Below, piece after piece: positions 31,285 through 63,915 of a stretch of 64,000 bases of DNA; the first letter of the stretch is position 1, and every line of letters starts with the position of its first letter. The position numbers and the translations under genes are program-made. The stretch covers positions 5,673-69,672 of the forward strand of contig JAUCBJ010000012.1 of assembly GCA_032718475.1 (NCBI GenBank). The letters are read 5' to 3'. This DNA comes from Nemertoderma westbladi (taxonomy: Eukaryota > Animalia > Xenacoelomorpha). The notes under the pieces were generated by a model. That model had not been told where the DNA came from and ran no database searches. It saw nothing but the letters and a program-made list of their open reading frames with translations.

Positions 31285-32329
31285 ATTTTATACCTGTTCT
31301 ATGTATTTGCTAAGGAAAATAATTTACAGATTAAATGGTTGTAATTGGAAGCAGGACATGGTAAAGAATCTCCATATGGTATTGGCGGAACCCTCAAGCG
31401 CACTTTAGATGCAGTGATGGGGATGGGTGTACACCAGACACCATCTTTTGATGACATTGTGAATTGTTTTAAGACTCGAACAGTGACAGAAATACTGTAC
31501 TGAAGATGATGTTAAACAACAAAAGTTGAAGTTGACACCCGAACCTAGGCCTATTAAAGGCATTGTAAAGGCACATGAGGTTTTGCTTGATCCCATCGTA
31601 ATGGATTTATCGTGCCTCTGGCAAGATAAGCTCCTAAAACGGCTTTGTATCTCTAAAGTTTCCAAAAAGTGCTTTCACTTTTTTACTGTTTTGGTTTCTC
31701 GGTATCAAGACAGAACTAGCTCGCAATAATACACGGTCCTTCAATGACTTGTTGTTTACGGAGATCCACAGCCATTTTCTAGATAGTGCAAAACACCGTG
31801 ATTTCTGTTCTTTCCAGGTGTTATATTGCTTCCTTCTGGTATAAAAATAGTGTACTCTACGTAACACCATAGAAAAACCTCTTCGAAGAGGAGAAACCGG
31901 GTGAAGAGTGCTTTGGGTCCGTTAGGATCCAAAGTATAGCTTCGAAAAATAATACAATTCAAATAATTGTAACCAAAATACACAGAAAATACAGTATTTT
32001 AGTCGTTTCGTTATGCTAAAATACTCTGAAAAATATACAAAAAAGTCCATTGAAAAAAGTCTGATTGTAGAAAAGTCTATTTTGTGGAAAATAGTCATGA
32101 AAAGTCGTAATAAACTTGGTGCAGCTTCACGCTATTGGAACTTGGCATTAGTACAAACACCAGGTACCCGTCTGGGTCCAAACGGCGGTGGGACCGATTG
32201 GATTGAAATGGTTGGCTACTGAATTGATATTTTTGATATAAATTGATTGAATTGATATTTATTTCCTTACTTCTTTATCCTACGACTTAGGATTGACCTC
32301 TAAGTCTGTTCGCGCTTTCAGACCGTTAT

Positions 32330-33587: not shown

Positions 33588-36500
33588 TTAGTCTTTCTTA
33601 CGCGGACGGCGTTTACGCAGTTTTTTGAGGCTAGCAAGAGTCCTTTTCTCTTTGGGGCGAGCCACTTTACTAGGAGGGCTGTAGCTCCTGGGTGAAGGGT
33701 GCAATACAATTGCATCAGAAGGTTTAGGATTACGATCGGTGTATCCTCCGGTCGAGGTACCTGGTTGATCGGTATCAACTTCAGTGGAGCGAGGTCTAAT
33801 GGCTTTTAGGGCGCGTCTTAGGACAGCAGCTCCTACGGGTCCTTGACGGGTCGTCTGGACAATGGCGGTAGGCGGACCGTGAGTGGTAAAAAACTTCCTT
33901 GGTTTAATGGTTCTTTCCAGCTCGCGTTCTCGGGCTCGATATTTGTAGGGCCGTCGAGATACTTCCTGTAACTCAGGGTGCGAGTTGATAAATAAATCGC
34001 CATACTCAGGGTCTTGACGGATGAAATTGATCAAATGATATGAAGTAATATCGTTAGGATTGACGTTCCTAAGATATTTTCGAACAAATTTGGTGGAAAT
34101 ACACTCACCAACACGCTTCATTAGTTCGTAACTCGGTGTGCGTGTTTTTTGTTCCACAGACGCGAATAAATAAGGATGGAACGCGTAAACTCCCTCGTAA
34201 GAGCGTCCAGGGTAGTAGCGATGGCGGGCCTCACAATGTAAATCCGCGTTCGCTTCCCAAGCTCGGATGTAGCGCAGGGTAATCATCTCATCTACGCTTT
34301 CTAAATCGCGGTTAAAGGGGCAATTATAACTGGCATGTCCTTTAAGTTGACAGTGGTGACATTGGGTCATAAATTGGGGGCAGACTGCAAAAATATGCGA
34401 GTTATTAAGTCTGCAATACGCACAATAGATCTCCATCATCGGTTGTTCGTGGAAATAGGAGCAGGGTACGTCTGAGTCCATAGGGGTGAAATGGTCTCTC
34501 GATGCGCATAATCGACAACGTTTTCGAGAAATATAGTTGGCGTGTCGATAATCGTATGCGGTGAGACATTGTGGACCTTGATACCACTCCAAGACGTAAT
34601 CGTTATCGCTGCTCCGGGGCGCTGTAGGCTGGATCGCTTCAGATTCTAAGCATATTGGTTCGTCTTCCAATTGCATAGCTGAGGTAGGTGCGGCTGTCTC
34701 CGCAAGCGGACCCACGGTCTGAATTTGAATATTCTATTGTCTGAATTTCCACGACAGAATAACCTGTGGGTATTCGAGGTCTTTGTATAACAGATGAATG
34801 TAAGTTCTGTATACAAACGTCCTGAAAGAGAGCAAATCCCGCGCTGTTTAGCTTCTCTGCAGCTGAGTCTCTTAGGCTGAGTTTGGTCAGAGCGCGGTCC
34901 TTGAACTGACTATCAACGTTACGGAACGGAGTCAGAAAGCGCCTGAAACATTCGAAGCGGATTAATTTATTGTGTTCATCTAACTTGGCGAGTTTGGTTC
35001 CAAGTATTAAGGGATGGGCGCGTATGGTACGACTGCACACATCGGCTAGCCAACCAGCAAGTGCTGCGTTTTCAAAGATCGTGTATATAGCTAAGGAGGG
35101 ACAAAGTGGAACACTCATAAAGCTATACACGGCGCCAGGTGCGGTCAATGGTCCATCAAAGTATAAACGAGAATATTGATCTCCATATACTTGTTGGTAA
35201 TTTATAGGATTTCCAACCTTGAAATTCCATCCATATTCTTGAAAGGCAAGATGTCCGATGGAGGTTCGTTGTACTTTGGTAATGCCGCTGGGTGTATTGG
35301 CATACATAGTGCGGAAGAAACCTCGGCCTTCTGCCCAGGGAGTAATCAGCTGAGTATCCACGAAAGGGTATGGAATGTTTTCCATATTCCGAAAGTCGTT
35401 TTGTAGATCTCCATAAACAGCCGAGCCGATTTTAAGGATTCTTTCGTTAAACAACATCTCGAGCACAGGTTGGGGTAACATCGATCCATCGATACCCATG
35501 GCCGGTTTGCGCTCGGTGTCGGCGACGTAACGCTGCGCGAGCTCGAATTGTCCATGTCGGAGTCTCTTTTGTGTCTCAGTAAGAGTTTCAAAAGAATAAT
35601 CAATCACATCGGAACACGCTCGAGTAAATACGTGGGTAGAACCAGCGAGTCCTCGTATGTGTATCATCCGCGTAGTTCCCAGTTCTCCAACCGGAATGCT
35701 ACCTTCGTTATCGTAAGTGACAACTCCATACATCTCGATAACGTTAAGAGTTTCGTTCCACTCTTTAGTGGCGTTTTCGAGGGTCATTCCCACAGGATGC
35801 CACAAGGTAGCGCATTCGCTAGCATTAGGTAGGTCTCTATACTTTAAATATTGTGTGGTATATGTTTCCACATCTCCATATCGTTGTATTCTTTCCTCCT
35901 CGAATAACACGTCAAGATTCCAGTGTACTAAACGAGTTTTGATGAATCCATCAAGATTATACGGAGGTATTGTTTCTTTCTCTATTCTGGAAACATTATA
36001 TGGTTTTCGAAATGAGTTTACTTTAACTAACTGATCCAGATGTTTCTGCAGTTGTTCGAGTTCGACAAGATCGAGAGGATTTATTAGTGGTAGAAACCTC
36101 AGACTATGTGTAGGATCTTCCGGTTTTACCATGTAATATTGCGTTAGATTGACGTAATAAGGGTGATCTTTGCCTGTCTTTCTTTTTTGATAACTCTTCA
36201 ATTATCCTTCTAAGTGCCAAAATGGGCTCCATGGTCCCACGACCTTTACGGAACCCATTTCAGGGTTCCCCCAGGGTTCCGTAAAGGTCGTGGGACCATG
36301 GAGCCCATTTTGGCACTTAGAAGGATAATTGAAGAGTTATCAAAAAAGAAAGACAGGCATCTGGCTGTTATCTTTGTTGACTTCTTCAAGGCCTTTGATT
36401 CAGTCTCTCGCTCACGTATGTTCAGCATACTTTCATTATATGGGATTCCTGATGAAATTATTGCAGCAATCAGATCAGTATACGATGGTTCGACAACATT

Positions 36501-39198
36501 TGTGTCTACTGTTGACGGTGACACAGAACCATTTGAAGTGTTATGGGGCGTCCTCCAAGGAGACACACTTGCACCATTCTTGTTCATTATTGTGGTTGAC
36601 TATGTTCTACGCATGTCCTTAGATCATCATAATGATGATGGGGTGATGATAACTCCACCTACTGGCTCCAGAAGTCGAGGAAATCCTGCCAAGTACCTAA
36701 CTGATCTAGACTTTGCTGATGACTAAGGAGTACTCTCAGAATCATTAGAGGGAGCCCAGCGGCTCCTCAGCTCATTAGAACATGCTGCTTCTAGTGTTGG
36801 TCTTTTTATTAACTCCAGAAAGACCAAAATTCTGACAGTTAACTTTGAAAGTCCTCAACAAGTCTCTGATCGGATGAGCATAAGCTCAAAGGATGGTATG
36901 CTTGAGCATGTGGACGACTTCTGTTACCTGGGATCATGGATCCGGAAGTCAGGTGAGGACCTTCGAATACGTAAGGGAAAGGCATGGGCAGCCTTGAATA
37001 GGCTTTCCAGGATTTGGAAGTCACCTAGAATTAATCGGAAACTTAAGGTCCGATTATTTAGAGCAGCAGTAGTTCCAGTACTCCTCTACGGGAGTCCATG
37101 CTGGGCTCTAACTGCTGAGGACACCAAATCTCTGGATGGCACATTCACAAGAATGCTACGCCGGGTACATTGTGTCAAGTACAATGCACACATCTCCAAC
37201 CAGACACTATATAACATTGGAGGTGTCTCATTGGTTCCCCCAAGCTTGACACTAGAACAAAATCGTCTCCGCTTTGCAGGACATTGCTTTCGCCGTGAGG
37301 ACCAGCCAGTGCATAATCTTGTACTTTGGCAGCCTCATGGAGTGAATAAGCATGGTGGACAGCCCATGACTTTCTTGAGACGCATCTTAAAGGACACTGG
37401 CCTTAAAGATGCGGATGATCTAGCAAATGTCATGGGTGATAGGGAGTTGTGGCGGCGCAATTTTGTTGACAAGCCGGCACAGCATTCTTAAAAATGCAGC
37501 TGCAATGCAGCATGCCGATCCTAGTCCTAGTTGATCCCATAAAACGAGTCCGGTAAAGGTCTAGCGCGTATGTTTACATCGTGTACCATGCGACGGACAA
37601 GATCCGCTCTATTGTCCGGAGGTTGAACGAGTGTACCATCTACACGAGCGGCTTCGATGGGTGGACGTTGCAACATGGGAGCGTCGGCGATAAGCTCTCT
37701 AGATCTTAGGTTGATATCAACCGGTTGGGGTTGTATCGTCGCAAAGAGTTTGTCTCCGAAATGGGGAACCATCGAGGGATGAAGGATGGTTTTAGAGTAG
37801 AGATCCGTCATAAGGATTTGAGCATCGGGTTGAGCTAAAGCTGCTTCTTCTCTCTCATCTAGTTCTATATGTCTCTCCTCGAGCTGATTTTCCTCCGCTT
37901 GTTGTTGTAGACGCTCATCTAGGAACTCTTGTAAAGAGTAGGTTCGTCCACGTTCGATGTCCTCTTAGAGATTTTGTATTTCTCTATCGAACTGGGGTAA
38001 AGCTAATTCCTTCACCGCTTGGACTTGTTGTTGCAATTTACGTTTCTCCAAACAATCGTAAGTTCCTTTTCCGATTTTCTGCCGAATAGCATCTAACGCG
38101 TTTCGTACGACGCTCTCTTCGACTTCTGTAACGGGTTGTATCGAGGTGAAGCCGGGACGGTTGTGTGGGTTAAATGGCGATTAGGTAGGGTTGGCGAATA
38201 TCTAGTGAGCCTACTACCGGAGTACCACCGATCAACTGTTCGGGTAACACTAGATCTTTGAACAGTGAGTACAGTTCAGGAGGATCCGTGATACTATTAG
38301 GATCAAGAGTCTGAGGTCTAACTGAGGAATGAGGAGGTCTGACCGAGTATTCCGGAACTCTGATCATTGGTTTGTTCAAGGATCGTTTGAGTCGAGCGAC
38401 CATAGGGGATACGTCGAACAGGTTTCGCTCGAAACTCCCATAAGTATATCGTGTAAAACTGTGTTTAGCGCAACGTCTCCGCGGATGTTTATGTCTTTCC
38501 GTTTGCTGATTGGGTCTAGGGCATTCGTCGCAGTAATACCAAAGACGCACGTCCTGCAGGGGAAACGCGGGTGATCGTTCTCCAGTTTTACAATATTCCT
38601 CCATCTGTTCGAAGCTATCTGGGACGACAGGTAGCGGTCGATCGGCGGTAAGATACATCATAGTGAAATAGAGTCGTTTGAGTTCTATCATAGGATCATG
38701 ATGTATACCTTGTGGATATCGAGTTTCGAGATTTTGTTGACTGGCAATAATGAGATATGTCTCTCTCAGGAATTCCAGATAATCGTTGAAGTCGCTGCGT
38801 TTATCCGGCTCTTCAACGTCTTCCCTTTCGAGTTTGTTTCGAATAGAGTTCTCGTGTTCTATTCTCGGTTTATCGTTCCGACTCCGCTGGGTATGATATT
38901 TAAATAAAACCATTTCCCTTTCGGTGTCTACATCGTCCGTATCGTGTAAATCGATAGGATGGCCAGTAGTTAAGAAGTCCATATACGTACCATTACGATG
39001 CGTATAGCGAGCGGTGAACTTTCTATAATCCAATTCACGCGTAAGTTGCTCCTGGGACATTGGCGGTTCGATATAACGACCATCATCCTCCGTAGTAGTT
39101 GGACCAGCGTCTCCGCGTATCAAGCTATCGACAAACGCTTGTAAAGGTAGAGTATATCGCTCCCTAATACCGAGATCATCTTCTATCAACTCAGTCAT
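33588..39198 (-). pseudogene. Accessory ORF of copy A (~1400 codons once the LINE is removed): unknown N-terminus, coiled region, DEDDy 3'-5' exonuclease (~35060-35760), CCHC zinc fingers (~34310-34525), basic C-terminal tail; frameshifted and LINE-interrupted
   Basis: ExoI VVTYDNEG; LP..VLEMLFNERILKIGSAVYGDL (ExoII); FVDTQL; SIGHLA; PL..SLAIYTIFE (ExoIII, D to E); CRLC..H..C, CAYC...H...CP, CHHCQLKGHASYNC; KKLRKRRPRKK. Confidence 0.75.
36169..37531 (+). mobile_element. 5'-truncated non-LTR retrotransposon (RTE-group-like RT) inserted antisense in the accessory ORF
   Basis: GFRKGR, FVDFFKAFDSV, GVLQGDTLAPFLF, DFADD then one in-frame stop, thumb YLGSWI, LLYGS..W; (CCTAGT)2 tail; possible TSD TGATC at 36164-36168 and 37532-37536. 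Confidence 0.9.
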
Positions 39199-40019
39199 AT
39201 CTGCTATGAGTTTATCAATATTATAATGAGTTTATATATTAGGCTAGCGGGCGTCGCTGCCTACCCCTCTTTTGCCCCCGGACAGTGCAAGATCCTCAGC
39301 GCCGATGTACCGTCGTCGCTGTGCTTTCGCCAACGATGTAGCTACACAACGACAACGATAACCGGCACAAGTCACTCCACTGTCCGTCCCAAAGGCTTAG
39401 ATGTACTTTAGGTTCTTTCTGGAGAGTTAGGGTTACTTTCACAATTGCGACTAGCTACTGTAAACACACTTTAGCAGTAACATTCACCTATGAACGCACA
39501 AATTCAACACAACTGCCATAAACTGTACACATTCGGGCCATTTGTCCGTTAGTCAGTACCTTCCAGAATGTCACTTTATTTATTATGTATCCTTGGATAC
39601 TAGCAGTGCGCTATTTATTCCCTATGCTATTCAATGGGGCAAGCCTTCTATTGTTCTTTTAACTCACTTCTAATTCTAGCGTGGTTGTTGCCATGGTGAC
39701 ATTATGGAAAGCTAGCGGTAGAATTAGGGTAATTCTCATGCATACAGATCTGGGATGCTATTTAATAGTAATTCTTTAATTGTCAATATCCTCTCTATAT
39801 ATGATTTTATGAATTTTATCGGCTATTGACTATATATTGGAGATTCTCGCACACAAATACACTTAATAGAGTGAATCTCCGCTCCCATGATCTATTAATT
39901 AATGGAATTTTGGGAATGTTATAAATTGTATAAAATGACAATTTATTAAATTCATTGAAATATCTGAATTTAAATTTATTCCCGTAAATTTTATTATTTA
40001 ATGTTAAATAGACACAATT

Positions 40020-40832: not shown

Positions 40833-41270
40833 CTAAGCTGGGGAGTCCCTAGATGTTTGTTGGATTAGGGAGGTGGTCGTGGGAAGAGTATCTTGCCTCC
40901 CATAGTTTCCGGAGAGTTCTCTGTCTCTTTCCAGTAAACATAAGCGACCAACTGGGCGATTGAGCTGCTGCGTCTCGAAGACAATTCCCGGTTTCTTGAA
41001 GTTACGTCGCATGACGACGAGTTCTACCGATCGCACCAAACCGTCATCCGAGATGTGAGTCTCGATGATACGACCTGTCTGCCACCGCTTACGTGGAAGA
41101 TCTACATCCAGAATAAGAACCATGTCTCCAGCGCTGACGTTTTCTTGCTGCGCAAACCACTTAGTTCGAAGTTGTAGCGTGGGCAGATAATGTTTTTCGA
41201 AATGGTCAGCGAAACGACGGGATAACAACTGCATGAGTTGCCAAGTTTGCCGGCAGTATTCGTCTCCGTC
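40833..41270 (-). pseudogene. C-terminal remnant of BEL pol (post-integrase, DUF5641-like), copy A
   Basis: F...F.KHYLPTLQLRTKW...GDMVLI.D..LPR.RW.TGRIIETH...DGLVRSVEL...RPV.RLCLL. Confidence 0.85.
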
Positions 41271-41279
41271 TGTGATTTC

Positions 41280-44200
41280 CGATTGTGGTAGTTAGGGTGA
41301 GGTTGCTGTCTGTGTCTTTTTCATACGTAAGTGCTCGATACACTGCGGTATTTATCATGTAACAGGATTCACCTTCGTCGGAGAATTCATCTCTATAGAA
41401 TCCTTCCATCTCAGAGCTTTGGTCAGTGTCGTTCACATCACTGAATTGGACATGTAGTTCGGAATCACTTACCTGACTCTGGCTGTTTCGCTCAAATTCA
41501 GTGTGCAACAAGATATGATGTTTCGCACCGCACTTTGCACACCTTGTGTCGGAGTAACAGGTTCGCCGTTGGTGTCCTTGTCTGAGGCAATTATAACACA
41601 ACCGCTTATCCCACATGACTTCCCGTCTCTCCGCTAATGATTTCTTCAGGAATTCATCACACGTATTCAAATGGTGGGTCCCGTCACATAGCGCACATTT
41701 CGGTTTGATGTTACTTACCTTATTTTGAATAACAGTGTGCACACTCTTTCTTTCTTCGGGCTTTCTCACCTGAATTCTCTTGGGAGACGTAGGAGGAGTT
41801 TTTCTTACCTGTTCTCTCCTGTCATTGGTTCGAGACTTGAATTTACTTACCTGTTCTTTAGGCGTTTTATTGACATAATAAGATCTTTCAGTGTCTTTCC
41901 CGCTATCCTCTCCTTGAGAAGTCTGGCTTTCGCCGTCGTCTGTATAACACACTGGTGTTACCTTTCTCCTAGAGATGGGTTTCTCACTTACCTTGTTTTC
42001 CGGTGTCTTCTCTCTGGACTGCTTTATGAGCTGTAATTTCACTTCGCCATCCAAGAATGACATGAGATCAGCCATGGTAGGGTCTCGTTGTTGTTGTTCC
42101 ATCATATATAACACTTTCTTGTCCCAGCGTGTACCTACTCCACCCTTCGGTAAAGTAGAAGCCACTGCTCTAATAACCATAGCACTCTGATACTCATGAG
42201 ACTTACCTAGCCAATCTAATTGTCTGCAGATCTCCTGAATCTCATCGGAAAACTCTATAATCCCGCTGCTAATAAACTTTCGGGGCGCTACCAACTTTGC
42301 ATACAAATACCCAGCTATGTTATTCCTATTACCATACCTGATGTTTAGTGTATCCCAAACTTGTCTTAATCCGTCTGGATGTCCAATAAACTTTAACGCC
42401 ATTAACTTGGGAGATCCTTCCAAGCACTCGATGAGGAATCTAAGTTTCTCTCCATTAGATAGCACAGAGTTCTGTATGTTATCTTTATAATATTCATTAA
42501 AAGGTAACCATTTCATCTCATCTCCATTGAACTTCACTATCTCTCCCACCTTTACCGCTTGGCGGGCTTCGGTTCTAGCCATTTGACGCGTAAAACTTTC
42601 TTGGGCCATCGTGTTATTTAATATCGAGTTATCGGTATATAAATTTCTTGGGTTATGATCAGGTCTATAGGGAATATCACTATCAACAGGTCTATAATTA
42701 CCCTTAATAGGGTTTACTATAGGAGTTTCTACTTCACTAGCAGTATAGATGCGTGTAGGCTCCACACCTTGCGCATGAAATACTTCAGACCTAACGGGTT
42801 GACATATTGTTACAGAGGGTGGTGATATACCCTTTTGTAAATTTACTAATTTCTCGCGTTCTAGCGCGATACTTTGCTGCACTTCTTGCAACTCTAACCT
42901 ACTTTCCTTTACGGTTCCCTTTAACTGTTGAACAGTCCCTTCTAACTCTCGGACCTGTAGGGAGGAGCGCACTCGATTCTCCTTCATCTCTCCGAGGAGA
43001 ATGTCCATCCCCCGCTGTCTCTCGTCTACCCAATCAACCGCCGAAGCAGGATCCGCCAACGTCGTAGCGGGCGGACGAGGGACTACAGGCGATATATCCT
43101 TTATATTTCGCTCGGAGTCCAGGACCGACACTGCTTCAGGGGCTGTTCCTCTAGGCACAGATAATTTGGTGCTGTGTAAAGGGAATTTAAAGGTGGGTTC
43201 TGGGAGCACAGGTGTCTCTATCACCGAAGGGGTGATTTCAAGAACAGGCCTAATTATTTCAGGCTCATCTACTATAGTAGGGAGTCTTTCTAGTTTAATT
43301 ATTTGGTCTGTGGGTTCTGTACTACCTAAATCTGTGTTAGTTAATTGCCTTCTAACAGCTGGGGGCAAATCAGGCAATTTGTGACGGTAAGATGTTCTTC
43401 TACGCCTACTTAGACGAGATCTATTTCCTCTGCCTTCAGGATCGGTGGTATCGCCTTCCTCAGATGATGTATAACCTTGTCTCTTGGGAGTAGATCTATT
43501 CATCATCTGCATATTACTAGCTGTTAACTGTTTACTGAAGTTGTCTTGCTTCTCTTGAAGATTTTCCAACTCTAGTTGGGTTGTCTCTTCAGATGCCCTC
43601 CGTTCTGCTTCTGCCACTGCTATTTTTCTTTCCGCTTCGGCCGCTGCCGCTTTTCTTGCTGCTTCTACTGCTGCAGCTGCCGCTTTTGCTTCTGCCGCTG
43701 CCGCTTTTGCCTCTGCTGCTGCCTCTGCCGCTTTTCTATCCGCTTCTGCCGCTGCCACTGCCGCTGCTGCTGTCTTTCTATCTTCTATACGTTTTTTCTT
43801 TACTTGTTCTTCTTGAACCTTAGCGATGCGGATGCTTTCATTGAATTTAGCTTGGTTCGCAGCTAACCTATCCACATCGATTGCGTCCAACACACGCTGG
43901 GCTCCTTCACTATTAGGGCTAAGCCCCTCTAGTCTTCTCCTCAACTCTTCATCTCCTACAAAACGTTGATAGTCCGACAGATAGATGTCAATGGCATCCC
44001 TCTTATGCGGCTTCTCTGCCGTCGCTTCACTTTCCACTTGGGAAAAAGTAGCGTCTGTTGATTCTCCATGGGTTGAGCGCTCATCCAGTTGGGCTTTCCA
44101 CTGAGTCGTTCCTTGCACCTGGAGGCTCACCTGTTGAAACCAAGTCTTTACGGCAACTTGCAACGACGTGTCTTGTCTTCTTTTAGAAGCCTCCTCAAAG

Positions 44201-44949
44201 GCCGATAAGATTAGCCTGATTCGTAGAATTCTTTCTCTAACTTGATAAAGCAGCTGTCCCTGCTCTTGAGGTCCTTGGGGTTGTTGAAACAGTTGTTTTT
44301 CTAATCACTCCATGGAGCTGAAGAATCCCTGTACGTATCCGGCTGCGGACCTCTTCCACACAGCTGGATCGATGGTTTCCTTGGTTACTCCCATCCTGTG
44401 TATATCTTCCCAGGCAGCTTCTGATAAATCAAACGGGAGTCCGGGTCCGGGGAAGTTCCATTGCGACTCGACAATAGACTTCAGTTCTTCCCTTGTGTAT
44501 CCCTCATAACTATCTTTAGTCGATCGCTTACTTCTCGCCCAATCGATCTGGTGTTCTTCCACCGCAATCAATAACCTAGTGAGTATGGCTGCAGGAAGGA
44601 TGAGAAGGGGATCCGAATAAACCGCATCCGTCATCTTTGCTCCGCGCTCGGGTGTCAGCTCTACAGTATCCTCACTACTGGAGCTGTCGGGCCGTTGAGA
44701 AATAAGTTCTTGGCTCGCGGGTTGTTGTTGTTCCGCTGCTTCTTGGTCCCGCTTGACCTGAGCTCTAGTGCCTATGACAGACCTACGGTGTTGGACCAGC
44801 CTAGGTTCTGATATTACTACTGGGGAAATGATCTTTCTTACAGTAGGAGGTGAGTTGAACTTCGGTCTAACACGTTCCACACTCCTGTCTGGGTCACATA
44901 AGGTTGTATCTAGGAGACTGTCTGACAGGTTTTGCTTTGTGTCAGACAT
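41280..44949 (-). pseudogene. BEL/Pao gag, copy A, with one premature TGA at 44305-44307
   Basis: KFNGDEMKWLPF...LSNGEKLRFL...L.G (DUF1759-like); CALCDGTHHLNTC, CYNCLRQGHQRRTC, CAKCGAKHHILLH; copy B has CGA where A has TGA. Confidence 0.9.
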
Positions 44950-47209
44950 GTTGGTTTGTACAGTTGAATGCCTACTGCTATATTACAGTTAAAGCAAGTT
45001 TAGTAATTCAGTATCAACTGTTAGCCTAGTAATTAATTACCGATACTGCTACTCAGTGTAGCGTGATATATATATAATATATTAGAATACCGGTATGCTT
45101 ATAGTATATATATAAGTATTATTACAGACTAGGTTTGTCACAGGATACCGGTATGTAATTCCAGCACAAATATATATAAATATATAATAGGCCTATCGTG
45201 AATACCGGTATGCAGCTTACACTTATAGTACATATAAGTATAATTATTAACTAGAATTAATTACAGAATACCGGTATGATTTCAGCCTAAATTTATATAA
45301 CTAAATATAATAAGCCTATCGTGAATACCGGTATGTCAATTATTTTAGAATAATTGAATTTCTGAATTTTTAGGGGTTACTTGGTTACTTTAACTTACTT
45401 TATTACCGTTATTTAAGCAGTAGTCCAACTGATATTTAGACCTAATTGTTGTATGGCAGGCCTACTATTTATAAATCGTTTGATTTGATTTATAATATAT
45501 ATATACCCGTTTAATGGGTTTTGTCAATATTTGAAATAAATGTTATTATTTCTGGGGGGAGTCACTACACAGAAGCTGTGCGCTCTCAGTGGAATGCTAC
45601 TTGTTGGACACTAAAACAAATAATTCTAATTTACCTAAGTTACTTAATACTACAAATTACATACAATTCGGGGTGAGATTACAATCTCTAAATAAACACA
45701 AAAAATTACACGTACGAATTTTTAGGGTAATTTTACAAGAAGTCTACAAACCAGCCTAACAAAGGGTTAGAAATCTGGTTATTACAACGGACAGAGTACT
45801 ACGGTATTTGAAAATAATAAGTAGTAGTAAATATACTGCGTTGTCCAGATAGAAAAATACCACCGTCTGACGACTTATAGCCGTATCGCTATAAGTACTA
45901 CGTTATGTATCACGGAGTGTTCCTACCTAGAAGTTAATTACCGCGGTCTACCAGAACCAACGTGCCTATTAACCACTTTACAACACAAATATACTGCCTA
46001 CACACTAATTGCCTTCGGAAAGCACTGTACACTAAACCCTAAATTAGGTACAAGTACTTATACAACAAATAATTAGTAGTTAAAATACTTGAACAGCTAA
46101 AAGAACCACGGTATCTGCCGGAGTGACCAAAGCACAAAATCTCCAGTCTTTACCTACGCCGAGCAGCCCTGATGTAGTACCGGGGTTAGTTTAACTATAA
46201 CAGTATGTATAACAAGCACAATTACTGTAGGAATAAACTTGGGGAATGAATGTTGCAAATAATCGCATAAACTCTGAATAATAAATATTACGCTACGCGT
46301 ACAGACTACTCAAACAAAATGCAGACCAAATACTGACAGACTACTATCAAGCCTAAACAAACTACGGTATATGCAGACTCCGAAATGGTTAGTTAGTATG
46401 CGTTCTAACCTAGTAGTACGACTTATTCTTTCAGAGGGGGTTTACCTCACAGCACTGGAAGCCCCTACATTCCCAACTGGCACTTTATCGGACATACACT
46501 CTACACACACCGAAATTTCCTCAGACCTAACAACAGCCAGACAACTATCCAGCCTACAAATTATCTAAATAAGAATTATACGCTACCTGTATAGACTACA
46601 CAAACAGAGTACAGACCAAACGCTGGCAGACTACTATCAAGCCTAAATAAACTACAGTATATGCAGACTCCGAAATGATTAGTTAGTATGCGTTCTAACC
46701 TAGTAGTACGACTTATTCTTTCAAAGGGGGTTTACCTCACAGCACTTGAAGCCCCTACGTTCCTAACTAGCACTTTATCGGACAGATGCTCTACACACAC
46801 TGCAATCTGTTCAGACTTAACAACAGTTTGACAACAGTCTAGCCTACAAATTGTCTGTACAATCTGAGCAGGCTTACACGCCTTCTGCTCAATATTGGCC
46901 TACAAATAAATAAAACTTGACAGAAATAAGTAAAATCTCAATAAAAAACCAGGGCAGGGCGGCCGTCCCTGATTAATTATTAAGGCCTACCGGTATATAA
47001 TTATCAAAATCGAATAATACTGCTGTACCTGTACTGCTGTAGGTACCGGTCCGGGTGGTTAGGTAGTCAGGCCTACTGGGTACCGGTTGCCGGTACTTCA
47101 GCTTTATTGCCTACTGCAATACAGAAGCAATATCCGTTATTGTTCTTACCAGAACAATATTAAACTGTATTTATTGCCTACCCTGCAATCCGAACTTGAT
47201 ATCCGTTAT

Positions 47210-48389
47210 TGTTCGCGCTTTCAGACCTTTAGCAGTTTAACCTGCCAAATTTGGATGTCTTTTAGATGATAGATAGTCTTTAGCCTATGACAAGTATTTG
47301 ATACACTACATTAGCCGAATCCAGTCTATGCGCGATCATTCACCCGCTGGATATACCCGGGAGACTGGATTCGGAAGCCTAACCGTATTGCGGGGTAGGC
47401 CTACTGTATTATTCGACTGATCGTAATATATATAATCTCTGACAAATATTATTCACTTTCGGGAAATATTAACAGTTCCTTTAGGACGTGGCGCTTTAAA
47501 AATATAAACAGAGTTATGACTTAAACTAGACACAACGGGATGGCTATAGATTCACGTATATGGCGCATTCTTTAGGAGATGCTTCGTTATCAATCACGAT
47601 CATACACAATACTGCACAATGCTGCACACTAATCTGCCGACCTTCACTAATTTTAGTCACATATAAGGAGAACAACAGACAATACGTGTAGGGCCTATAA
47701 AATAGCATTAGATTCACTTCAAACCACTTAATGTAAGTCGCAATCGTTATATGTATCCGGTCTCTCTAACCTTTACTATATCAAGAAGATTGGGGTGTCT
47801 GATTGTTTATCAGTATTCCAAATATAATATTCCATCAACAAATATAATGAATAACCGACAGCAAAAGCAGTAATGTTAAGGTATGTTATGAGTGAGTGAG
47901 TAAGTTAAGTTATGTTATGTATGTATGATCAGTGAGTTTGATATGATAACGGATATACGTTCTATAATTAAGCCTACTAATGTTGAACTAAAGACTGAAA
48001 CACGGAGGTTCCACGCCGGTGTTGTAGGCTGTGGACAAAATCACAATACTGACTCACTTCCCTAGTTTCTATATACAATCTCCAACACAGAGGCAAAAAA
48101 CGCTCTGATTGGTCGACCGAACAAAGAGAGAACAAAGAACAAAGAGATGTTCCACGTGGCAATATCAGCTGTTAGCCGTCGTCATGGTATCTACACTGTT
48201 TCAAGAGGATCCGGCGTATTGAGTCATAGAATTGCTAATCATGTCCGCTAAAGTACACATACAGAAGAAATGGCTTTTATGTCCTCTAAAACAACAGTGC
48301 AGTAAGGACACGGCCTTTTATGCCTGCTAAACCAACTACAGAGTACTTTACGGGGAAAATAACCGGCTAATTACGCAAAAGCATTTACA
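47210..48389 (-). repeat. 5' LTR of copy A
   Basis: TGTAAATGC...GCGCGAACA; CCAAT, TATATAGAAA and initiator-like TCAGT (48052-48048) on the element strand. Confidence 0.95.
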
Positions 48390-50671: not shown

Positions 50672-51840
50672 TGTAAAAGCTTTTGCGGAATTAGCTGGTT
50701 ATTTTCCCCGCAAAGTACTCTGTAGTTGGTTTAACGGACATAAAAAGCCGTTTCCTTACTGTACCGGTGTTTTAGAGAACATAAAAAGCCATTTCTTCTG
50801 TATGTGTACTTTAGCGGACATAACTAGCAATTTTATGTCGCAATACGCTAAAATCCTCTTGACACAGTGTAGTTACTATGATGACGGCTAACAGCTGATC
50901 TGTACACGTGGAGCTTTTCCTTTGTTCTCTGTTCTTTCTTTGTTCGGTCGACCAATCAGAGCGTTTTTTGACTCTGTGTTGGAGATTGTATACAGAAACT
51001 CATGCAATTGAGTCAGTTGGTGTATTTTGTCCACAGCCAGAAGACCGGCTTTGGAATCTCTGTGTTTTCAGGCTTTAGCAAAACATTAGTAGGCTTGATC
51101 ATAGAACGTATAACCGTTATCTAAACAATTCATACCTAATCAAACAAAACAATCAAAACACCGCATTTTTACTGCTATTTACTGTCGGTTATTAATTATA
51201 TCAGTTGATGGAATATTATTATATTGGGATAATATCGATCAATAATCAGAAACCCCAATCTTCTTGATATACTGAAGGTTAGAGAGACTGGTTACATATA
51301 ACAATTGCGACTTACATTATATTGGTTTTGGAGTGAATCTAATGCTATTTCATAGGCACTACATGAGTCAGTGGTTGTTCTCTTTATATGTGACTAAAAT
51401 TAGTGAAGGTCGGCAGATCGGTGTGCAGCATTGTGCGGTAGTGTGCATGATTGTGACTGATAACGAAGCATCTCCTAAAGAATGCGCTTTATACATGAAT
51501 CCATAGCCATCCCGTTGTGTCTAGTGTAAGTCATAACTCTGTTTACATATTTAGAGCGCCATGTCCTAAAGGAACTGTTAATATTTCCCAAAAGTGAATA
51601 ATATTGGTCAGAGATTATATATTAACAATCAGTCGAATAATACAGTAGGCCTACACCGCAATAAGGTCAAGGCTTCCGAATCCAGTCTCCCGGGTATATG
51701 CAGCGGGTGAATGGTCGCGCATAGACTGGCTTCGGCTAATGTAGTGTATCAAATACTCGTCATAGGCTAAAGTCGATTTATAATCTAGAAGACATCTAAA
51801 TTTGGCAGGTTAAACTGCTAAAGGTCTGAAAGCGCGAACA
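50672..51840 (+). repeat. 5' LTR of copy B (1169 bp)
   Basis: Homologous to the copy A LTRs; CCAAT ~50952, TATA-like ~50989, TCAGTT 51013-51018. Confidence 0.93.
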
Positions 51841-51851
51841 ATAACGGTTAT
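51841..51851 (+). promoter_or_regulatory. Non-tRNA primer-binding site ATAACGGTTAT, complementary to LTR 51110-51120
   Basis: Immediately follows the LTR end; exact reverse complement of ATAACCGTTAT; no TGG tRNA-type PBS. Confidence 0.7.
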
Positions 51852-54640: not shown

Positions 54641-55748
54641 ATTTAGGGTTTAGTGTACAGTGCTTTCCGAAGGTAATTAGTGTGTAGGCAGTATATTTGT
54701 GTTGTAAAGTGGTTAATAGGCACGTTGGTTCTGGTAGACCGCGGTAATTAACTTCTAGGTAGGAACACTCCGTGATACATAACGTAGTACTTATAGCGAT
54801 ACGGCTATAAGTCGTCAGACGGTGGTATTTTTTCTATCTGGACAACGCAGTATATTTACTACTGCTTTGTTATTTTCAAATACCGTATTACCTTGTCCAT
54901 TGTAATAACCAGATATTCTAACCCTTTGTTAGGCTGGTTTGTAGACTTCTTGTAAAATTACCCTAAAAATTCGTACGTGTAATTTTTTGTGTTTATTTAG
55001 AGATTGTAATCTCACCCCGAATTTTACGTAATTTGTAGTATTAAGTAACTTAGGTAAATTAGAATTATTTGTTTTAGTGTCCAACCAGTAGCACTTCACT
55101 GAGAGCGCACAGCTTCTGTGTAGTGACTCCTTCCCAGAAATAATAACATTTATTTCAAACATTGACAAAACCCATTAAACGGGTACACAAATATTATAAA
55201 TCAACTCAAACCGATTTATAAAATAGTAGGCCTGTCATACATCAATTAGGTCTTAATGTCAGTTGGACTACTGCTTAAATAACAGTAATAAGGTAAAGTA
55301 AAGTAACCAAGTAACCCCTAAAATTCAGAAATTCAATTATTCTAAAATAATTGATATACCGGTATTTACGATAGGCTTATTATATTTATTTCTATAAATT
55401 TAGGCTGAAAATTATACCGGTATTCTGTAGTTAATTCTAGTCTGTAATAACACTTATATATATACTATAAGTGTAATCTGTATACCGGTATTCACGATAG
55501 GCCTATTATATATTTATATATATTTGTGCTGAAATTTATATATACCGGTATTCTGTGACAAACCTAGTCTGTAATAATACTTATATATACACTATAAGTG
55601 TATACCGGTATTCTAATATATTGTATATATATTACGTTACATAGAGTAACAATATCGGTAATTAATTACTAGGCTAACAGTTGATACTGAATTACTAGAC
55701 TTGCTTTAACTGTAATATAGCAGTAGGCATTCAACTGTACAAACAAAC

Positions 55749-58700
55749 ATGTCTGACACAAAGCAAAACCTGTCAGACAGTCTCCTAGATACAACCATCT
55801 GTGACCCAGACAGGAGCGTGGAACGTGTGAGACCGAAGTTCAATTCACCTCCTACTGTAAGAAAGATCATCCCTCCAGTGGTAATATCAGACCCTAGGCT
55901 AGTCCAACACCGTAGGTCTATCATAGGCACGCAAGCTCAAGTCAAGCGAGACCAAGAAGCAGCGGAACAGCAGCAACACTCGAGCCGAGAACTTATTTCT
56001 CAGCGGCCCGACAGCTCCAGTAGTGCGGATACTGTAGAGCTTACACCCGAGCGCGGAGCTAAGATGGCAGATGCGGTTTATTCGGATCCCCTTCTCATCC
56101 TTCCTGCAGCCGTACTCACTAGGGTATTGATTGCGGTGGAGGAACACCAGATTGATTGGGCGAGAAGTAAGCGATCGACCAAGGATAGTTATGCGGGATA
56201 CACAAGGGAAGAACTGAAGTCTATTGTTGAGTCGCAATGGAACTTCCCCAGACCCCGACTCCCGTTTGACTTATCAGAAGCTGCCTGGGAAGACATACAC
56301 AGGATGGGAGTGACCAAAGAAACCAGCGATCCAGCTGTGTGGAAGAGGTCAGCAGCAGGATACGTACAGGGATTCTTCAGCTCTATGGAGCGATTAAAGG
56401 AACAACTGTTTCGACAACCCCAAGGACCTCAAGCGCAGGGAGAGCTGCTTTATCAAGTTAGAGAAAGAATTCTACGAATCAGACTAATCTTATCGGCCTT
56501 TGAGGAGGCTTCTAAAAGAAGACAAGACACGTCGTTGCAAGTTGCCGTAAAGACTTGGTTTCAGCGGGTGAGTCTCCAAGTTCAAGGAACTGCCCAGTGG
56601 AAATCTCAGTTGGCTGAGCGCTCAACCCATGGAGAATCAACAGACGCTACATTTTCCCAAGTGGAAAGTGAAGCGACGGCAGAGAAACCGCATAAGAGGG
56701 ATGCTATTGACATCTATCTGTCGGACTATCAACGTTTTGTAGGAGATGAAAGTTGAGGAGAAGGCTAGATGGACTTAGCCCTAATAGTGAAGGAGCCAAG
56801 CTTGTGTTGGACGCAATAGATGCGGATATGATAGCTGCAAACCAAGCTAAATTTGATGAACGCCTCCGCATCGCTAGATCCAAGAAGAACAAGTAAAGAA
56901 AAAACATATAGAAGACAGAAAGACAGCGGCAGTGGCAGCAGCAGTGGCAGCGGCAGAAGCGGAAAGAAAGGTGGTAGAGGTGGAAAGAAAAGCGGCAGCG
57001 GCAGCAGCCGAAGTGGAAAGAAAAGCGGCAGTAGCAGCGGCAGAAGCGGATAGAAAAGCGGCAGAAATAGAAAGAAAGGCAGTGGCAGAAGCAGAACGGA
57101 GAGCGTCTGAAGAGATCGCCCAACTAGAGTTGGAAAATATTCAAGAGAATCAAGACTGCATAAATAAACAGTTAACAGCTAGTCAAATGCAGATGATGAG
57201 TCGATCTACTCCCAAAAGGCAGGGATTTACATCATCTGATGAAGGCGATACCACCGATCCTGAAGGTGGAGGAAATAGATCTCATCTAAGTAGGCGTAGA
57301 AGAATGTCCCACCGTCAGAAATTGCCTGATTTGCCCCCAGCTGTTAGAAGGCAACTAACTAACACAGACTTAGGTAGTACAGAACCCACAGACCAAATAA
57401 TTAAAATAGAAAGACTCCCTACTATAGTAGATGAGCCTGAAATAATTAGGCCTGTTCTCGAAGCCACCCCTTCGGTGATAGAGACACCTGTACTCCCTGA
57501 ACCTGCCTCTGAATTCCCTCTGCACAGCACTAAGCTACCTGTGCCCCACAGAACCACCCCTGAAAATGTTCATGTCCTGGACTCCGAGCGAAATATTAAT
57601 GATTTGTCGCCCGTTGTCCCTCGTCCGCCCGCTACAACGTTGGCGCCTCCCGCTTCGGCGGTCGAGTGGGTAGATGAGGGACGACGGGAGATGGGTCTCC
57701 TGCTCGGGCAGCTGAGGGAACACCGTTCTTGCTCCTCTCAGCAGGTCCAGGAGATGGGGGAGACTGTGCAGCAGTTAAAGGGAACAATTAGAGAGGGTAG
57801 GTTAGAGTTGCAAGAAGTGCAGCAAAGTATTGCGTTAGAACGCGATAAACTAGTAAATCTCCAAAAGGGTATACCACCACCCCCTGTAACAATGTGTCAA
57901 CCTGTTAGGTCTGAAGTATTTCATGCGCAAGGTGTGGAGCCTACACGCATCTATACTGCTAGTGAAGTGGAAACTCCTATAGTAAACCCTATTAAGGGTA
58001 ATTATAAACCTATTGATAATGATATTCCATATAGACCTGATCATAATCCGAGAAATTTATATACCGATAACTCGATATTAAATAACACGATGGCCCAAGA
58101 AAGTTTTACGCGTCAAATGGCTAGAACCGAAGCCCGTCAAGCGGTAAAGGTGGGAGAGATCGTCAAGTTCAATGGAGATGAGATGAAATGGTTACCTTTT
58201 AATGAATATTACAAAGATAACATACAGAACTCTGTGCTATCTAACGGAGAGAAACTTAGATTCCTCATCGAGTGCTTGGAAGGATCTCCCAAGTTAATGG
58301 CGTTAAAGTTTATTGGACATCCAGATGGATTAAGACAAGTTTGGGATACCCTAAACATCAGGTATGGTAATAGGAATAACATAGCTAGGTATTTGTATGC
58401 AAAATTGGTAGCGCCCCGAAAGTTCATTAGCAGCGGGATTATAGAGTTTTCCGATGAGATTCAAGAGATCTGTAGACAATTAGATTGGCTAGGTAAGTCT
58501 CATGAATATCAGAGTTCTATGGTTATTGGAGCCGTGGCCTCTACTTTACCTAAGGGTGGAGTAGGTACACGCTGGGATAAGAAAGTGTTATATATGATGG
58601 AACAACAACGACGAGACCCTACCATGGCTGATCTCATGTCATTCTTAGATGGAGAAGTGAAATTACAGCTCCTAAAGCAGTCCAGAGAGAAGACACCGGA

Positions 58701-60738
58701 AAACAAGGTAAGTGAGAAACCCGTTTCTAGGAGAAGGGTAATACCAGTGTGTTATACAGACGACGGCGAAAGCCAGGCTTCTCAAGAGGAAGACAGCGGG
58801 AAAGACACTGAAAGATCTTACTATGACAACAAAGCGCCTAAGGACGTAAGTAAATTCAAGTCTCGAACCAATGACAGGAGAGAACAGGTAAGAAAAACTC
58901 CTCCTACGTCTCCTAAGAGAATTCATGTAAGAAAGCCCGAGGAAAGAACGAGTGTGCACAACGTTACCCAGAGTAAGGTAAGTAACATCAAACCAAAATG
59001 TGTGCTGTGCGACGGGCCCCACCGTTTAAGTGTGTGTGATGAATTCATGAGGAAATCATTAAAGGATAGACGTGAAGTCATGTGGGATAAGCGGTTGTGT
59101 TATAATTGCCTCAGACGAGGACATCAACGGCGAACCTGTTACTCCGACGCAAGGTGTGCAAAGTGCGGCGCAAAACATCATATCTTGTTGCACACTGAAT
59201 TCGAACGAAACAGCCCGAGTCAGGTAAGGGAGTCCGAACTACATGTCCAATTCAGTGATGTGAACGACACTGACCAAAGTTCTGAGATGGAAGGATTCTA
59301 TACGGACGAATTCTCCGACGAAGATGAATCCTGTTACCTGATAAATACCGCAGTGTATCGAGCACTTACGTATGAAAAAGACACAGACAGCGAGCTCCCC
59401 CTAACTACTTCTGACCGACAACCATCTTGGAAAGCACCAACTTCCAATGTAGGAATCCGAGAATTTCCAGTAGTGCAGTTAAGGGTCCATGGACCTAAAA
59501 GGAGTTATATAGTGAACGCCCTCCTTGACTCCGGTAGCACAGGAACATTCATCGACAAAGAACTAGCCGAAGACATCTTTGCTGGACAACCCAAGTTCCG
59601 AACTAAGTTAAACATGTCAGGAATTATGCAGGTTTGGAAATCTACAGTAATAGCTGATTATTATGTAGGTGCGTTGTCCACCCCCCAGGATGAACTAGGA
59701 GAACATAGTATAAGGTCAGTAAAAATGGTGGCGATAAAGAACTTCGCTACCAGCCAAGTGGTACCTTATAACTGGAATGAGGACGATTCCACCCAGCAGC
59801 TTAATATACCCAGATTCAACACAGATTACCCCGGAGTGCAAATACTCATCGGCCAAAATGCGCATGAAGCGCTTGAGACATTAGAGAAACGGCCTGCTCA
59901 ACCGCAACCATTACAAGTCTATGCGGGAAGAACTAGAGTAGGTTGGTACATTACTGGTCCTTCACGTAGAACTCTAATGGAAAGATTACCAAAAGAACAG
60001 GTATATCAATTAAGTGAATGGGAAGTGGAGAGCAGTGAAGTTGACGACCCAACTGAGGGAACACCATACTCCTCAGATAATGATGATATTAACTCCAATG
60101 TAGATCAATGGAGACATTGCCCCGAGACGATTAATCTGGCCGACATCGCTTCCAGAGGAGCAACTCCTCAAGAACTGACAGATACTCCAGACTGGTTAGG
60201 TGGACCCGACTTCCTAAGTAAAGAAGATGAATGGCCTCCCCATCTTACCACGGCTGAGATTAGACAAGCCAGGGGAGCGGAGAAAGTCAAACCTAAAACC
60301 CGGACGAGTAAATCAAGGTTATTTAAACCCGTGATAGATCTGTCTGTACTACACATTGCCAGGGACGACGCTGTGGATCTGAACTCCCCCACCGCGAACC
60401 GATCTGTTGTGGAGATCAGAGAGAGAGACTGGAGATCTGGAATACCAGACGTCTCGCCGGGACTCTCACCTCTCCTGCCGGGAGCGATGGACCACTATAG
60501 ATCCTGGAATCGGCTTTGTAAGGCCGTCGTGTATTTGAAGCGATGTTTCTATCGTCACTATTCCAGGACGAAGAGGAAACCTGGAATTGTCTTCGAGATA
60601 CAGCAGCTCAATCGCCCAGTTGGTCGTTTATGTTTACTGGAAAGAGACAGAGAACTCTCCGGAAACTATGGAAGGCAAGATACTCTTCCCACGACCACCT
60701 CCCTAATCCAACAAACATCTAGGGACTCCCCAACTTAA
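55749..60738 (+). pseudogene. BEL/Pao gag-protease fused in frame to RNase H-end and pol C-terminal remnants (RT and IN deleted); frameshifts ~56750-56900
   Basis: Gag as in copy A; aspartic protease ALLDSGSTGTFI and ILIG; QWRHCP...NLADIASRG...W..GPDFL; no RT or DDE integrase core visible. Confidence 0.9.
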
Positions 60739-62401
60739 CAACGTCTGGAGTGGGTGTGTGACTATATTATTTTATATTCTTATTATTTTATATTTATGTA
60801 TGTATTATTATGTATTTTTATTATAATCGTTTTCTTTAATTTTATTTAGTAGAATGTTATTTTAGCGATTATTTAGTAGATTAGTGCAATATGTATTAGT
60901 GTTTATTACTTAATTACTTATATATTATATATTTACAGCGACGGCGAGAAATAATTATTTTTCTCTTTCCTTACTGTCCGTATTACATTATAAATACGTG
61001 ACTACAGTAAGATGAAATATCCGTACTTATTAAAGTACAATAAAGCTCCTACTATATTTAAGTATTATTGGTAAGTAGAGTATTAGGAATGCAAAGTTCA
61101 GATCCTCGTGTCTCGGCTAAACCAAGCTCTGGGTAGACCTTGGAAACGACTTGCCTCTTCTCACTGACATTGCTTCGTGCGATATTGCTCTCATACCGTA
61201 TATTAAATAATACATATAGTAGCGTGATGTCCCTTTAACAGTAGCGTACAACGCAAATAAATCTGTTAAACCCTTTGACCATCTGTAATTCTAGTCGATT
61301 AAGATATCGCGGCACCCACCGATATACTTGAAAGACAAAATTCTAGAATCAGTGGTTAACGTCCCCAGACAAGTTCTGGAATAAACTGGTGCCCATCCTA
61401 AATATTAATTATTAATATTTACAAAATCTGTCAAATTTTAGATCCTTTAAAATTCTAGTCAATTAAGATATCGTAGCACTTACCGATACTCTTAAAAGAA
61501 CAAATTTCCTAGAATCAAGGATCCCAGTCCCCAGATATGTTCTGGAATAAAATTGTGTCTATTTTAATATTAAATAATAAAATTTACGGGAATAAATTTA
61601 AATTCATATCTTTTAATGAATTTTATAAATTGTCATTTTTATGCAATTTATAACATTCCCAAAATTCCATTAATTAATAGATCATGGGAGCGGAGATTCA
61701 CCCTATTAAGTATATTAGTGTGCAAGAATCTCCAATATAGTCAATAGCCGATAAAACTCATAAAATCATGTATAAAGAGGAATATTGACAATTAAAGAAT
61801 TACTATTAAATAGCATCCCAGATCTGTATGCATGAGAATTACCCTAATTCTACTGCTAGCTTTTCATAATGTCACCATGGCAACAACCACGCTAGAATCA
61901 GAAGTGAGTTAAAAGAACAATAAAGGCTTGCCCCCTTGAATAACATAAGGAATAAATAGCATACTGCTAGTATCCCAGGATACCCAATAATAACGTGGCA
62001 TTCTGGAAAGCACTGACTAACGGACAAATGTCCCGAATGTGTGCGATTTGTGACAGTTGTGCCCGAATGTGTGCGATTTGTGACAGTTGTGTGGAATTTG
62101 TGCGTTTATAGGTGAATGTTACTACTAAGGTGTGTTTACAGTAGCGAGTCGCAATTGTGAAAGTAGCCCTAACTCTCCAGTAAGAACCTGAAGTAAATCT
62201 AAGCCTTTGGGACGGACGGTGGAGTGACTCGCGCTGGTTGTTGTGGTCGTTGTGCAGCTACGACGTTGGCGATAGGCACATCGGCGAAAGTACACCAGCG
62301 CTGAGGATCTTGCGCTGTCCGGGGGCCGAGAGGGGTAGGCAGCGACGCCCGCTAGCCTAAATATAAACTCATTATAATATTGATAAACTCATATAGCAGA
62401 T

Positions 62402-63765
62402 ATGACTGAGTTGATAGAAGATGATCTTGGTATCAGGGAGCGATATACTCTACCTTTACAAGCGTTGTTGATAGCTTGATACGCAGCGACGCTGGTCCAA
62501 CTACTACTGAGGACGATGGTCGTTATATCGAACCGCCAATGTCCCGGGAGCAACTTACGCGTGAATTGGACTATAGAAAATTCACCGCTCGCTACGCTAT
62601 ACGCATCGTAATGGTACGTATATGGACTTCTTAACTACCGGCCATCCTATCGATTTACACGATACGGACGATGTCGACACCGAAAGGGAAATGGTACTAT
62701 TGAAATATCCTACCCAGCGGAGTCGGAACGATAAATTGAGAATCGAATGCGAAAATTATATTCGAAATCGACTCGAAGGAGAAGACGTTAAAGAACCGGA
62801 TAAACGCGGTAACTCCAACGTATATTTGGAATTCTTGAGAGAAACATTGTAAAACCGAATAAATATCACCCGCGTTTCCCCTACAAGACGTGCGTCTTTG
62901 GTATTATTGCGATGAATGCCCAAGACCCAACCAACAAACGGAAAGACATAAACATCCGCGGAGACGTTGCTTTAAACACGGTTTTACTCGCTATATTTAC
63001 GGGAGTTTCGAGCGAAACTTGTTCGATGTATCACCTACGCTCGTTCGATTCAAACGATCCTTAAATAAATCTATGATCAGAGTTCCGGAATACTCGGTCA
63101 GACCTCCTCATTCCCTAGTTAGACCTCAGACACTTGATCCTAATAGTATCACGGATCCTCCCGAACTGTACTCACTGTTCAAAGATCTAGTGTTACCCGA
63201 ACAGTTAGTCAGTGGCGCTCCGGTTGTGGGCTCCCTAAATATTCGCCCATCTTACCTAGTCGGATTGGGACGCGGACATCTAATATCGCCATTCAACCGT
63301 ATCATCGTCCCTGTTTAACCCGATACAACCTGTAACCAAGGCGGAGGAGAGAGTTGTACGAAACGTGTTGGACACTATTCGTCAAAAGATCGGAAAATGA
63401 ACCTACAATTGTTTAGAGAAACGTAAATTGCAGCAGCAAATCCAAGCGGTAAACGAATTAACTTTATCTCAGTTCGATCAGGAAATTCAGAATGTCTAAG
63501 AAGATATCGAACTTGGACGATCCTATTCTCTGCAAGAGTTTTTGGATGAACGCATCCAACGATAAGCGGAGGAAAATCAGCTCGAGGAGAAGCATATCGA
63601 AATGGACGAGACATCGACCGTAACCCTAAACCTTCCGATGCAATTGTATTGCACCCTTTACCCAGGAGTTATAGCCCTCCTAGTAAAGTGGCTCGCCCCA
63701 AAGAGAAAAGGACTCTTGCTAGCCTCAAAAAACTGCGTAAACGCCGTCCGCGCATGAAAAACTAA
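62402..63765 (+). pseudogene. Deleted copy of the accessory ORF in copy B, lacking the exonuclease and zinc fingers
   Basis: MTELIEDDLG start homologous to 39198; jumps at ~63612 to DRNPKPSDAIVLHP...KKLRKRRPR. Confidence 0.85.
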
Positions 63766-63915
63766 CTGTTTAGAGTTATTTTTATATTTTAGAAACTGTG
63801 ATTTTTTATATTTTATAGAATTAAATCCCATTTTCAGGGAGCGGTGTAAAAGCTTTTGCGGAATTAGCTGGTTATTTTCCCCGCAAAGTACTCTGTAGTT
63901 GGTTTAACGGACATA

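Follow-up and report, generated by a model that had tools for sequence, protein, structure and literature searches.

How an LTR retrotransposon whose primer-binding site (PBS) lacks the tRNA-type TGG begins reverse transcription, and whether a nuclease encoded by the same family takes part, is the question raised by the stretch of Nemertoderma westbladi DNA analysed here (64,000 nucleotides, referred to as the window). A preliminary description had proposed a coupled system, in which an RNA of the element, once annealed to the PBS, would be shortened 3' to 5' by an element-encoded DEDDy nuclease back to the edge of the duplex, leaving a 3' end at the LTR boundary.

The window contains one LTR retrotransposon family in three copies—A, B and C—which, belonging to the same family, together constitute one observation and not three. 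Copy B starts at 50672 on the + strand; copy C runs from 48389 to 32307 on the − strand, with the target-site duplication GACTT on both sides; and copy A, also on the − strand, starts at 2870 and runs off the edge of the window. The 5' LTR of copy B (50672..51840, +) is 1169 nt long with TG...CA ends, the terminal CA ending at 51840, and corresponds to 47210..48389 (−) in copy C and to 1690..2870 (−), with a diverged upstream part, in copy A. The 3' LTR of copy C (32307..33509, −) has 99.3% identity with the 5' LTR of that copy, and the 3' LTR of copy B is interrupted, its start lying at 63845..63915 (+).

Copy B carries gag-protease ORFs with DUF1759 and internal deletions (55716..60738, +), and copy C carries gag ORFs and an integrase C-terminus with DUF1759 and DUF5641 (40833..44982, −); domain searches found no RT domain in either of these two full-length copies. 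PF03564 and PF05380 are both present in 8/8 homologs matched by the family's proteins, and the best homologs are BEL polyproteins. By its Gag DUF1759, the DUF5641 of its integrase end and these homologs the family is assigned to BEL/Pao, the RT having been deleted in B and C. It further resembles canonical BEL/Pao elements in its protease, in the G-free tracts of its LTRs, and in having TG...CA LTRs with a 5-bp target-site duplication (GACTT in copy C).

Control elements were taken from a BEL polyprotein scan, in which the best 80 of 494 loci were kept and the 59 with long flanks were searched for LTRs. Twenty-seven elements in 20 families passed the filters (LTR identity of at least 95%, 250-2000 nt, CA end); 26/27 are from one assembly, and the set consists of distant elements, not close relatives. 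In each of the 27 a TGG lies no more than 8 nt from the LTR, and none has a long ORF ahead of the 3' LTR; in the family described here the LTRs are 1.2 kb long, the leader is 3.9 kb and ORF3 is large. A self-complement of at least 10 nt at the PBS is found in 0/27 of these TGG-type elements, and there are no matches to the ORF3 nuclease or to its homolog P0001 (below) among the best 80 of the 494 BEL loci. Homolog and locus searches, which included viral and metagenome contigs, found no close relatives of the element, and no BEL locus was found in the viral contigs.

The primer-binding site and its complement in the LTR

The PBS of copy B, ATAACGGTTAT (51841-51851, +), adjoins the CA that ends the LTR and has no TGG. 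Its exact reverse complement, the putative self-primer 11-mer ATAACCGTTAT, lies inside the LTR at 51110-51120 (+). The corresponding 11-mers of copies C (47956-47946) and A (2440-2430) are likewise exact complements of their own sites, so that the match is found in 3/3 copies, at a distance of 720-740 nt; relative to B, copies A and C carry ATATCCGTTAT / ATAACGGATAT, changed on both sides (compensatory). The number of chance matches of the 11-mer expected per LTR is 0.0005-0.0007, and 0, 0 and 1 of 40 shuffles equal or beat the 11-bp duplex in the three copies. The base 3' of the primer is C, opposite a template A, in 3/3 copies, and the duplex therefore stops exactly at the LTR boundary, where the preliminary description had placed its edge.

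Copies C and A have two tandem PBS units each (47130..47214 and 1610..1694, both −), 69 nt apart and each made of GAACA and the full 11-mer, and copy B has a single unit. In all five units complementarity ends at 11 nt, the flanking bases do not pair, and the sequence beyond diverges. Neither a tRNA gene nor an Rfam match was found in the region. Summed over the three variants of self-priming weighed below, it is likely that this family uses RNA of its own as the primer for reverse transcription, independently of tRNA, as had been proposed; the 11-nt LTR self-complement at the PBS and its compensatory change are the evidence that supports it.

A PBS beside the LTR with an LTR complement of at least 10 nt (11 nt here, in 3/3 copies) and without TGG is an arrangement of the Tf1 type. 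The passages available for Tf1, Tf2, Tj1 and the Tf1/sushi group describe a PBS of 11 nt whose complement lies in the LTR of the element itself, and no tRNA site (PMC7175516, PMC4600332, bioRxiv 2022.12.06.519325). Tf1/sushi elements are Ty3/gypsy chromoviruses, whereas the element here has BEL domains (DUF1759, DUF5641) in place of chromovirus proteins. Self-priming is reported for the Tf1/sushi group, and Tcn1 and TAR are predicted to use it as well; the passages in which this is stated make no mention of a nuclease ORF. To our knowledge, experimental self-priming is confined to Ty3/gypsy elements of yeast. No report of BEL/Pao self-priming was found in titles, abstract beginnings and passages (including those of PMC6317226, PMC5443660, PMC3601003, PMC4600332 and PMC8943300), a literature that lies mostly outside the subscription journals, and no report of nuclease-trimmed self-primers was found in titles and abstract beginnings.

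Global folding of the LTR plus the first 80 nt beyond, with no pseudoknots modelled, predicts the primer:PBS helix in copy B, where pair probabilities reach 0.97, and not in the other two copies (0.0 in each). Two elaborations of the primer were rejected. A 4-bp extension of the duplex past 11 bp appears covariant by eye and is not better than shuffled flanks in 4/5 units (fractions 0.24, 0.22, 0.34 and 0.51; 0.048 in the fifth), and a primer built by splicing is unnecessary, the 11-mer being contiguous.

The sequence upstream of the 11-mer bears on where the primer RNA might start. The motif TCAGT, which we take to be initiator-like and thus a candidate transcription start, lies at 51013..51017 (+) in copy B, 97 nt upstream of the 11-mer, and at -96 to -99 in 3/3 copies; over the interval from about -118 to about -73, the similarity of copy A to B and C climbs from 35-65% to 72-85%. 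A putative U5-pairing arm (51061..51076, +) has as its partner the end of U5 (51821-51836), just 5' of the PBS. This is the arm's best partner in B and A and its second in C, with no two-sided change, and helices as good arise in 1/40 shuffles in B, 3/40 in A (marginal) and 10/40 in C (not better). A pyrimidine-rich TTTCAG (TTTTCAG in B, within 51061-51071), 39 nt upstream of the primer and kept in all copies, may be a splice acceptor or the U5-pairing arm. A hairpin in U5 (51801..51822, +) recurs in each of the three copies despite two changes that affect one side only, and a helix of 7-9 bp between the sequence after the tract described below and that after the PBS can be drawn in all copies, overall no better than in shuffles. 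The TCAGT motif, the limit of the copy A divergence and the arm at -50, all situated 35-100 nt upstream of the 11-mer, are hints that favour a primer longer than 11 nt; the strict 11-nt limit of complementarity in the five PBS units points instead to an 11-nt primer.

The A/C-rich tract and ORF3

GTTAT, the 3' end of the primer, had been noted to run directly into a nearly G-free, A/C-rich tract, and this is confirmed in all three copies of the one family (51121..51162, +, in copy B; 47945-47872 in copy C; from 2429 in copy A). The longest G-free run of each LTR is at or beside the primer end—46 nt in B, 61 nt in C and 59 nt in A, that of copy C beginning after one G at +16—and the next-longest runs are 16-19 nt. 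A G-free run of at least 46 nt occurs in 25/5000 Markov simulations of the copy B LTR, and by position we estimate the coincidence of tract and primer end at roughly 1 in 100. Across the copies the tract measures anything from 50 to 77 nt, is built of short repeats, and has a T-rich stretch on its 3' side in all three (T fraction 0.43-0.6 at +60 to +120).

Over the first 45 nt of the tract the mean unpaired probability is 0.64 in B, 0.51 in C and 0.86 in A, compared with 0.39-0.41 overall, and the tract ranks 10/766, 128/782 and 1/786, respectively. It is thus predicted to be largely, and not entirely, free of structure, as had been claimed for it, and less so in C.

G-free LTR runs are also present in the controls, with lengths of at least 40 nt (up to 87 nt) in 4/27 elements (3/20 families) and of at least 30 nt in 13/27; two of these elements, L070 and L074, have 37 A+C in 45 nt, equal to copies B and A. 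The control tracts are mostly found near the start of the LTR, in many cases ahead of a TATAA, and a tract directly at the primer end is particular to this family among the controls compared. Because G-free A/C tracts occur in TGG-type controls without ORF3, the tract is not diagnostic of trimming. No conserved poly(A) signal (an AATAAA-like hexamer) is found near the tract or the 11-mer in the three copies. The suggestion that the tract marks an RNA end or the action of an exonuclease is accordingly not sustained.

The nuclease invoked in that suggestion belongs to ORF3. In copy C it is represented by an RNase D-like (DEDDy-type) ORF (34639..36170, −) with the motifs YDNEG (35715-35701), GDL (35412-35404) and YTIFE (35085-35071), by a zinc-knuckle ORF in a different frame (33588..34733, −), and by an upstream piece with no family match (38170..39231, −). 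A LINE fragment (36171..37537, +; RVT_1, DUF6451) lies inside the region; the start of this insertion (36171-36359) is an inverted repeat of its own sequence, resembling a 5' inversion. The ORF3 remnants of copy B (62300..63765, +) have the exonuclease and zinc-knuckle part deleted, with the joint at 63604-63611. A similar joint is present in contigs of run X1 (assembled contigs of uncertain type); contigs of this run also read through the site of the LINE insertion and span the boundary on the side of the 3' LTR. Since the X1 contigs bridge both the insertion and the 3' LTR junction, ORF3 belongs to the family. The element-encoded DEDDy nuclease of the preliminary description therefore stands as a real RNase D-like ORF of the family, and not as an intact gene of these copies, being absent from B, broken in C, and out of view in A, which leaves the window. 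Copy B is also without RT and would be copied in trans, and so the loss of ORF3 at the B and X1 joints is neutral evidence.

The Atlas top matches of the nuclease ORF are to PF01612 (score 0.92, 162 shared features). TIGR01388 (RNase D) matches the copy C nuclease ORF at E 0.026, and no Pfam match was obtained for that ORF. The sole homolog found, P0001, matches PF01612 at E 0.2 and also has nucleocapsid-like zinc knuckles, with both domains in one protein; it is an unnamed 648-aa protein, a single member, on a 9.4-kb contig, and scans of viral and metagenome loci for the nuclease ORF yielded no further homolog. Structure models of the nuclease proteins are of low confidence (pLDDT 28 and 30). 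In both the copy C ORF and P0001 the D-x-E of Exo I and the D of Exo II are aligned, with motifs assigned by eye, and Exo III reads Y-x-x-x-E, not Y-x-x-x-D; for the assignment of Exo I, II and III we have used what we take to be the DEDDy consensus. With YxxxE in place of YxxxD in both proteins, the catalytic activity of ORF3 is uncertain. These lines converge, weakly, on membership of the RNase D family. Synonymous third-position changes make up 12/13 of those among the variants listed in the three ORF3 frames, and 4/4 in the nuclease ORF, a count that covers 40 of 1259 X1 variants overall; these are signs of purifying selection and of some function of ORF3 in the family.

RNase D-like ORFs downstream of pol are also described for the bdelloid LTR elements Juno and Vesta and for Athena/Terminon. 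According to the parts available of PMC5408684, DEDDy ORFs are common to the unrelated retroelements Juno, Vesta and Athena, and a role in 3'-end processing is proposed for the DEDDy ORF3, without demonstrated activity. Those elements are of another superfamily and have the motif DEED, as against D-E-D-E here, where zinc knuckles follow the domain. The terms 'PBS', 'tRNA' and 'self-prim' are absent from the main text of PMC5408684, and a link to priming is not drawn there. The sharing of DEDDy ORFs by unrelated retroelements fits a modular accessory, and ORF3 probably encodes an accessory protein, either an RNA nuclease or one that binds RNA, whose task is a different one (processing of RNA in the particle, or counter-silencing).

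Formation of the primer

An exonuclease requires a free 3' end; as long as the genome RNA is intact, the loop that holds the primer has none and cannot be opened in this way. The reading we put first, with confidence evenly poised, is that a Tf1-like endonucleolytic cut makes the primer, the tract serving as an unpaired linker and the nuclease as an accessory. The 11-mer would pair with the PBS across about 720 nt, and RT/RNase H would cut after GUUAU, at the edge of the duplex, as in Tf1; the tract, as a linker of low structure, would leave the primer unhindered and the site of the cut open to the enzyme; and plus-strand synthesis would copy the primer back into the PBS, so that a compensatory change would propagate. 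A cut of this kind needs no exonuclease, and it accounts for the length of the primer, for its edge, and for the benefit that an unpaired linker would bring. For Tf1 itself, the passages available describe pairing of the first 11 bases with the PBS and an RNase H cut that separates base 11 from base 12 (PMC7175516), within a three-duplex structure (bioRxiv 2022.12.06.519325). The element here differs in the spacing of primer and PBS (about 720 nt); in its 11-mer, which, unlike the primer of Tf1, may lie elsewhere than at the 5' end of the RNA; in the three-duplex 'pretzel', which is not clearly found; and in the PBS, which is doubled in two copies. Also counting against a Tf1-like cut are the loss of RT from both full-length copies, the primer:PBS helix unpredicted in A and C, the coincidence of tract and primer end, and the constraint on ORF3.

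Trimming by the ORF3 nuclease, as proposed earlier, is neither refuted nor favoured; it ranks below the Tf1-like cut, and we consider it unlikely. An RNA whose free 3' end falls within the tract or beyond it—a short LTR RNA, the 3' R region, or the 5' fragment left when the loop is cut imprecisely—would anneal to the PBS and be trimmed to the duplex edge; a hybrid of imprecise cut and trimming is possible, and is counted within the same low estimate. In a fuller form, likewise doubtful, a long, LTR-derived primer RNA would dock on PBS and U5 in the manner of a tRNA, and the ORF3 nuclease would trim its tract to the LTR boundary; the upstream TCAGT and the -50 arm fit such a longer RNA. Trimming is further consistent with a tract that begins at the primer end, with the union in ORF3 of an RNase D-like domain and nucleocapsid-like zinc knuckles, with its synonymous variants, and with the 3'-end processing of element RNA suggested for such ORFs in the available parts of PMC5408684. 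The self-complementary PBS and ORF3 occur together in one family, and neither is found in the 20 distant control families (27/27 elements); the controls being distant and having neither trait, this co-occurrence is concordant with coupling yet uninformative. Against trimming stand the unspecific nature of G-free tracts, the lack of a conserved poly(A) hexamer near the tract, and the third motif YxxxE of copy C and P0001, and a 3' R used as primer would presumably consume the strand-transfer acceptor of that RNA. RNase D and RNase T, the latter of the DEDDh branch, are 3' trimmers of the predicted fold family that stop near duplexes. The trimming required here is flush; a short overhang remains after digestion by RNase T, which also stalls at a 3' C (PMC3439924).

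Self-priming with a 3' end made by host machinery—cleavage or termination near the tract, small-RNA-guided slicing, or host trimmers—we hold to be improbable. The T-rich stretch after the tract in all three copies would suit the region past a cleavage site, but no conserved AATAAA-like signal lies near the 11-mer, and U5 would be about 650 nt. It is also rather improbable that the pairing is a structural element (for dimerisation, packaging or a switch), with a host RNA as primer and the tract as ordinary low-complexity LTR sequence. That explanation could draw on the occurrence of just one compensatory change across three copies, on the variable length and short repeats of the tract, and on the helix missing from the predicted fold of A and C. 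It fits poorly with a PBS that has no TGG, with a complement that begins at the first base past CA and measures 11 nt in all five units before the sequence diverges, and with the lack of a self-complement of at least 10 nt in the 27 TGG-type controls.

The presence of both unusual traits in one family offers a direct test of what retroelement DEDDy nucleases do. Trimming, if true, would be a new way to make a retroelement primer; failing that, the family would still offer a clean case of probable BEL self-priming, in which a compensatory change is present alongside an uncommon nuclease ORF.

Other features of the copies and the window

The 3.9-kb leader of copy B (51852-55715) contains a 290-nt tandem repeat, and copy A is without the stretch equivalent to 52934-54641, with an identical joint in one X1 contig. 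The upstream part of the copy A LTR (2870-2545, −) is 35-65% like B and C and its termini are kept, which suggests that the promoter region has been swapped. At the end of the copy C 3' LTR (32307-32329, −), 7 nt of PBS are followed by the last 16 nt of the LTR again, a 23-nt duplication after which the target-site duplication comes next; it may record a slip of the template when minus-strand synthesis began, or a gene conversion from the 5' end. A 16-nt LTR-end pattern gave 15 viral matches, presumed to be chance. Elsewhere in the window are an RRM-domain ORF (19835-20419) and tandem-repeat arrays at 3445-8000 and 21700-23300 (units of 33-34 nt and 22-23 nt), all apparently unrelated to the element.
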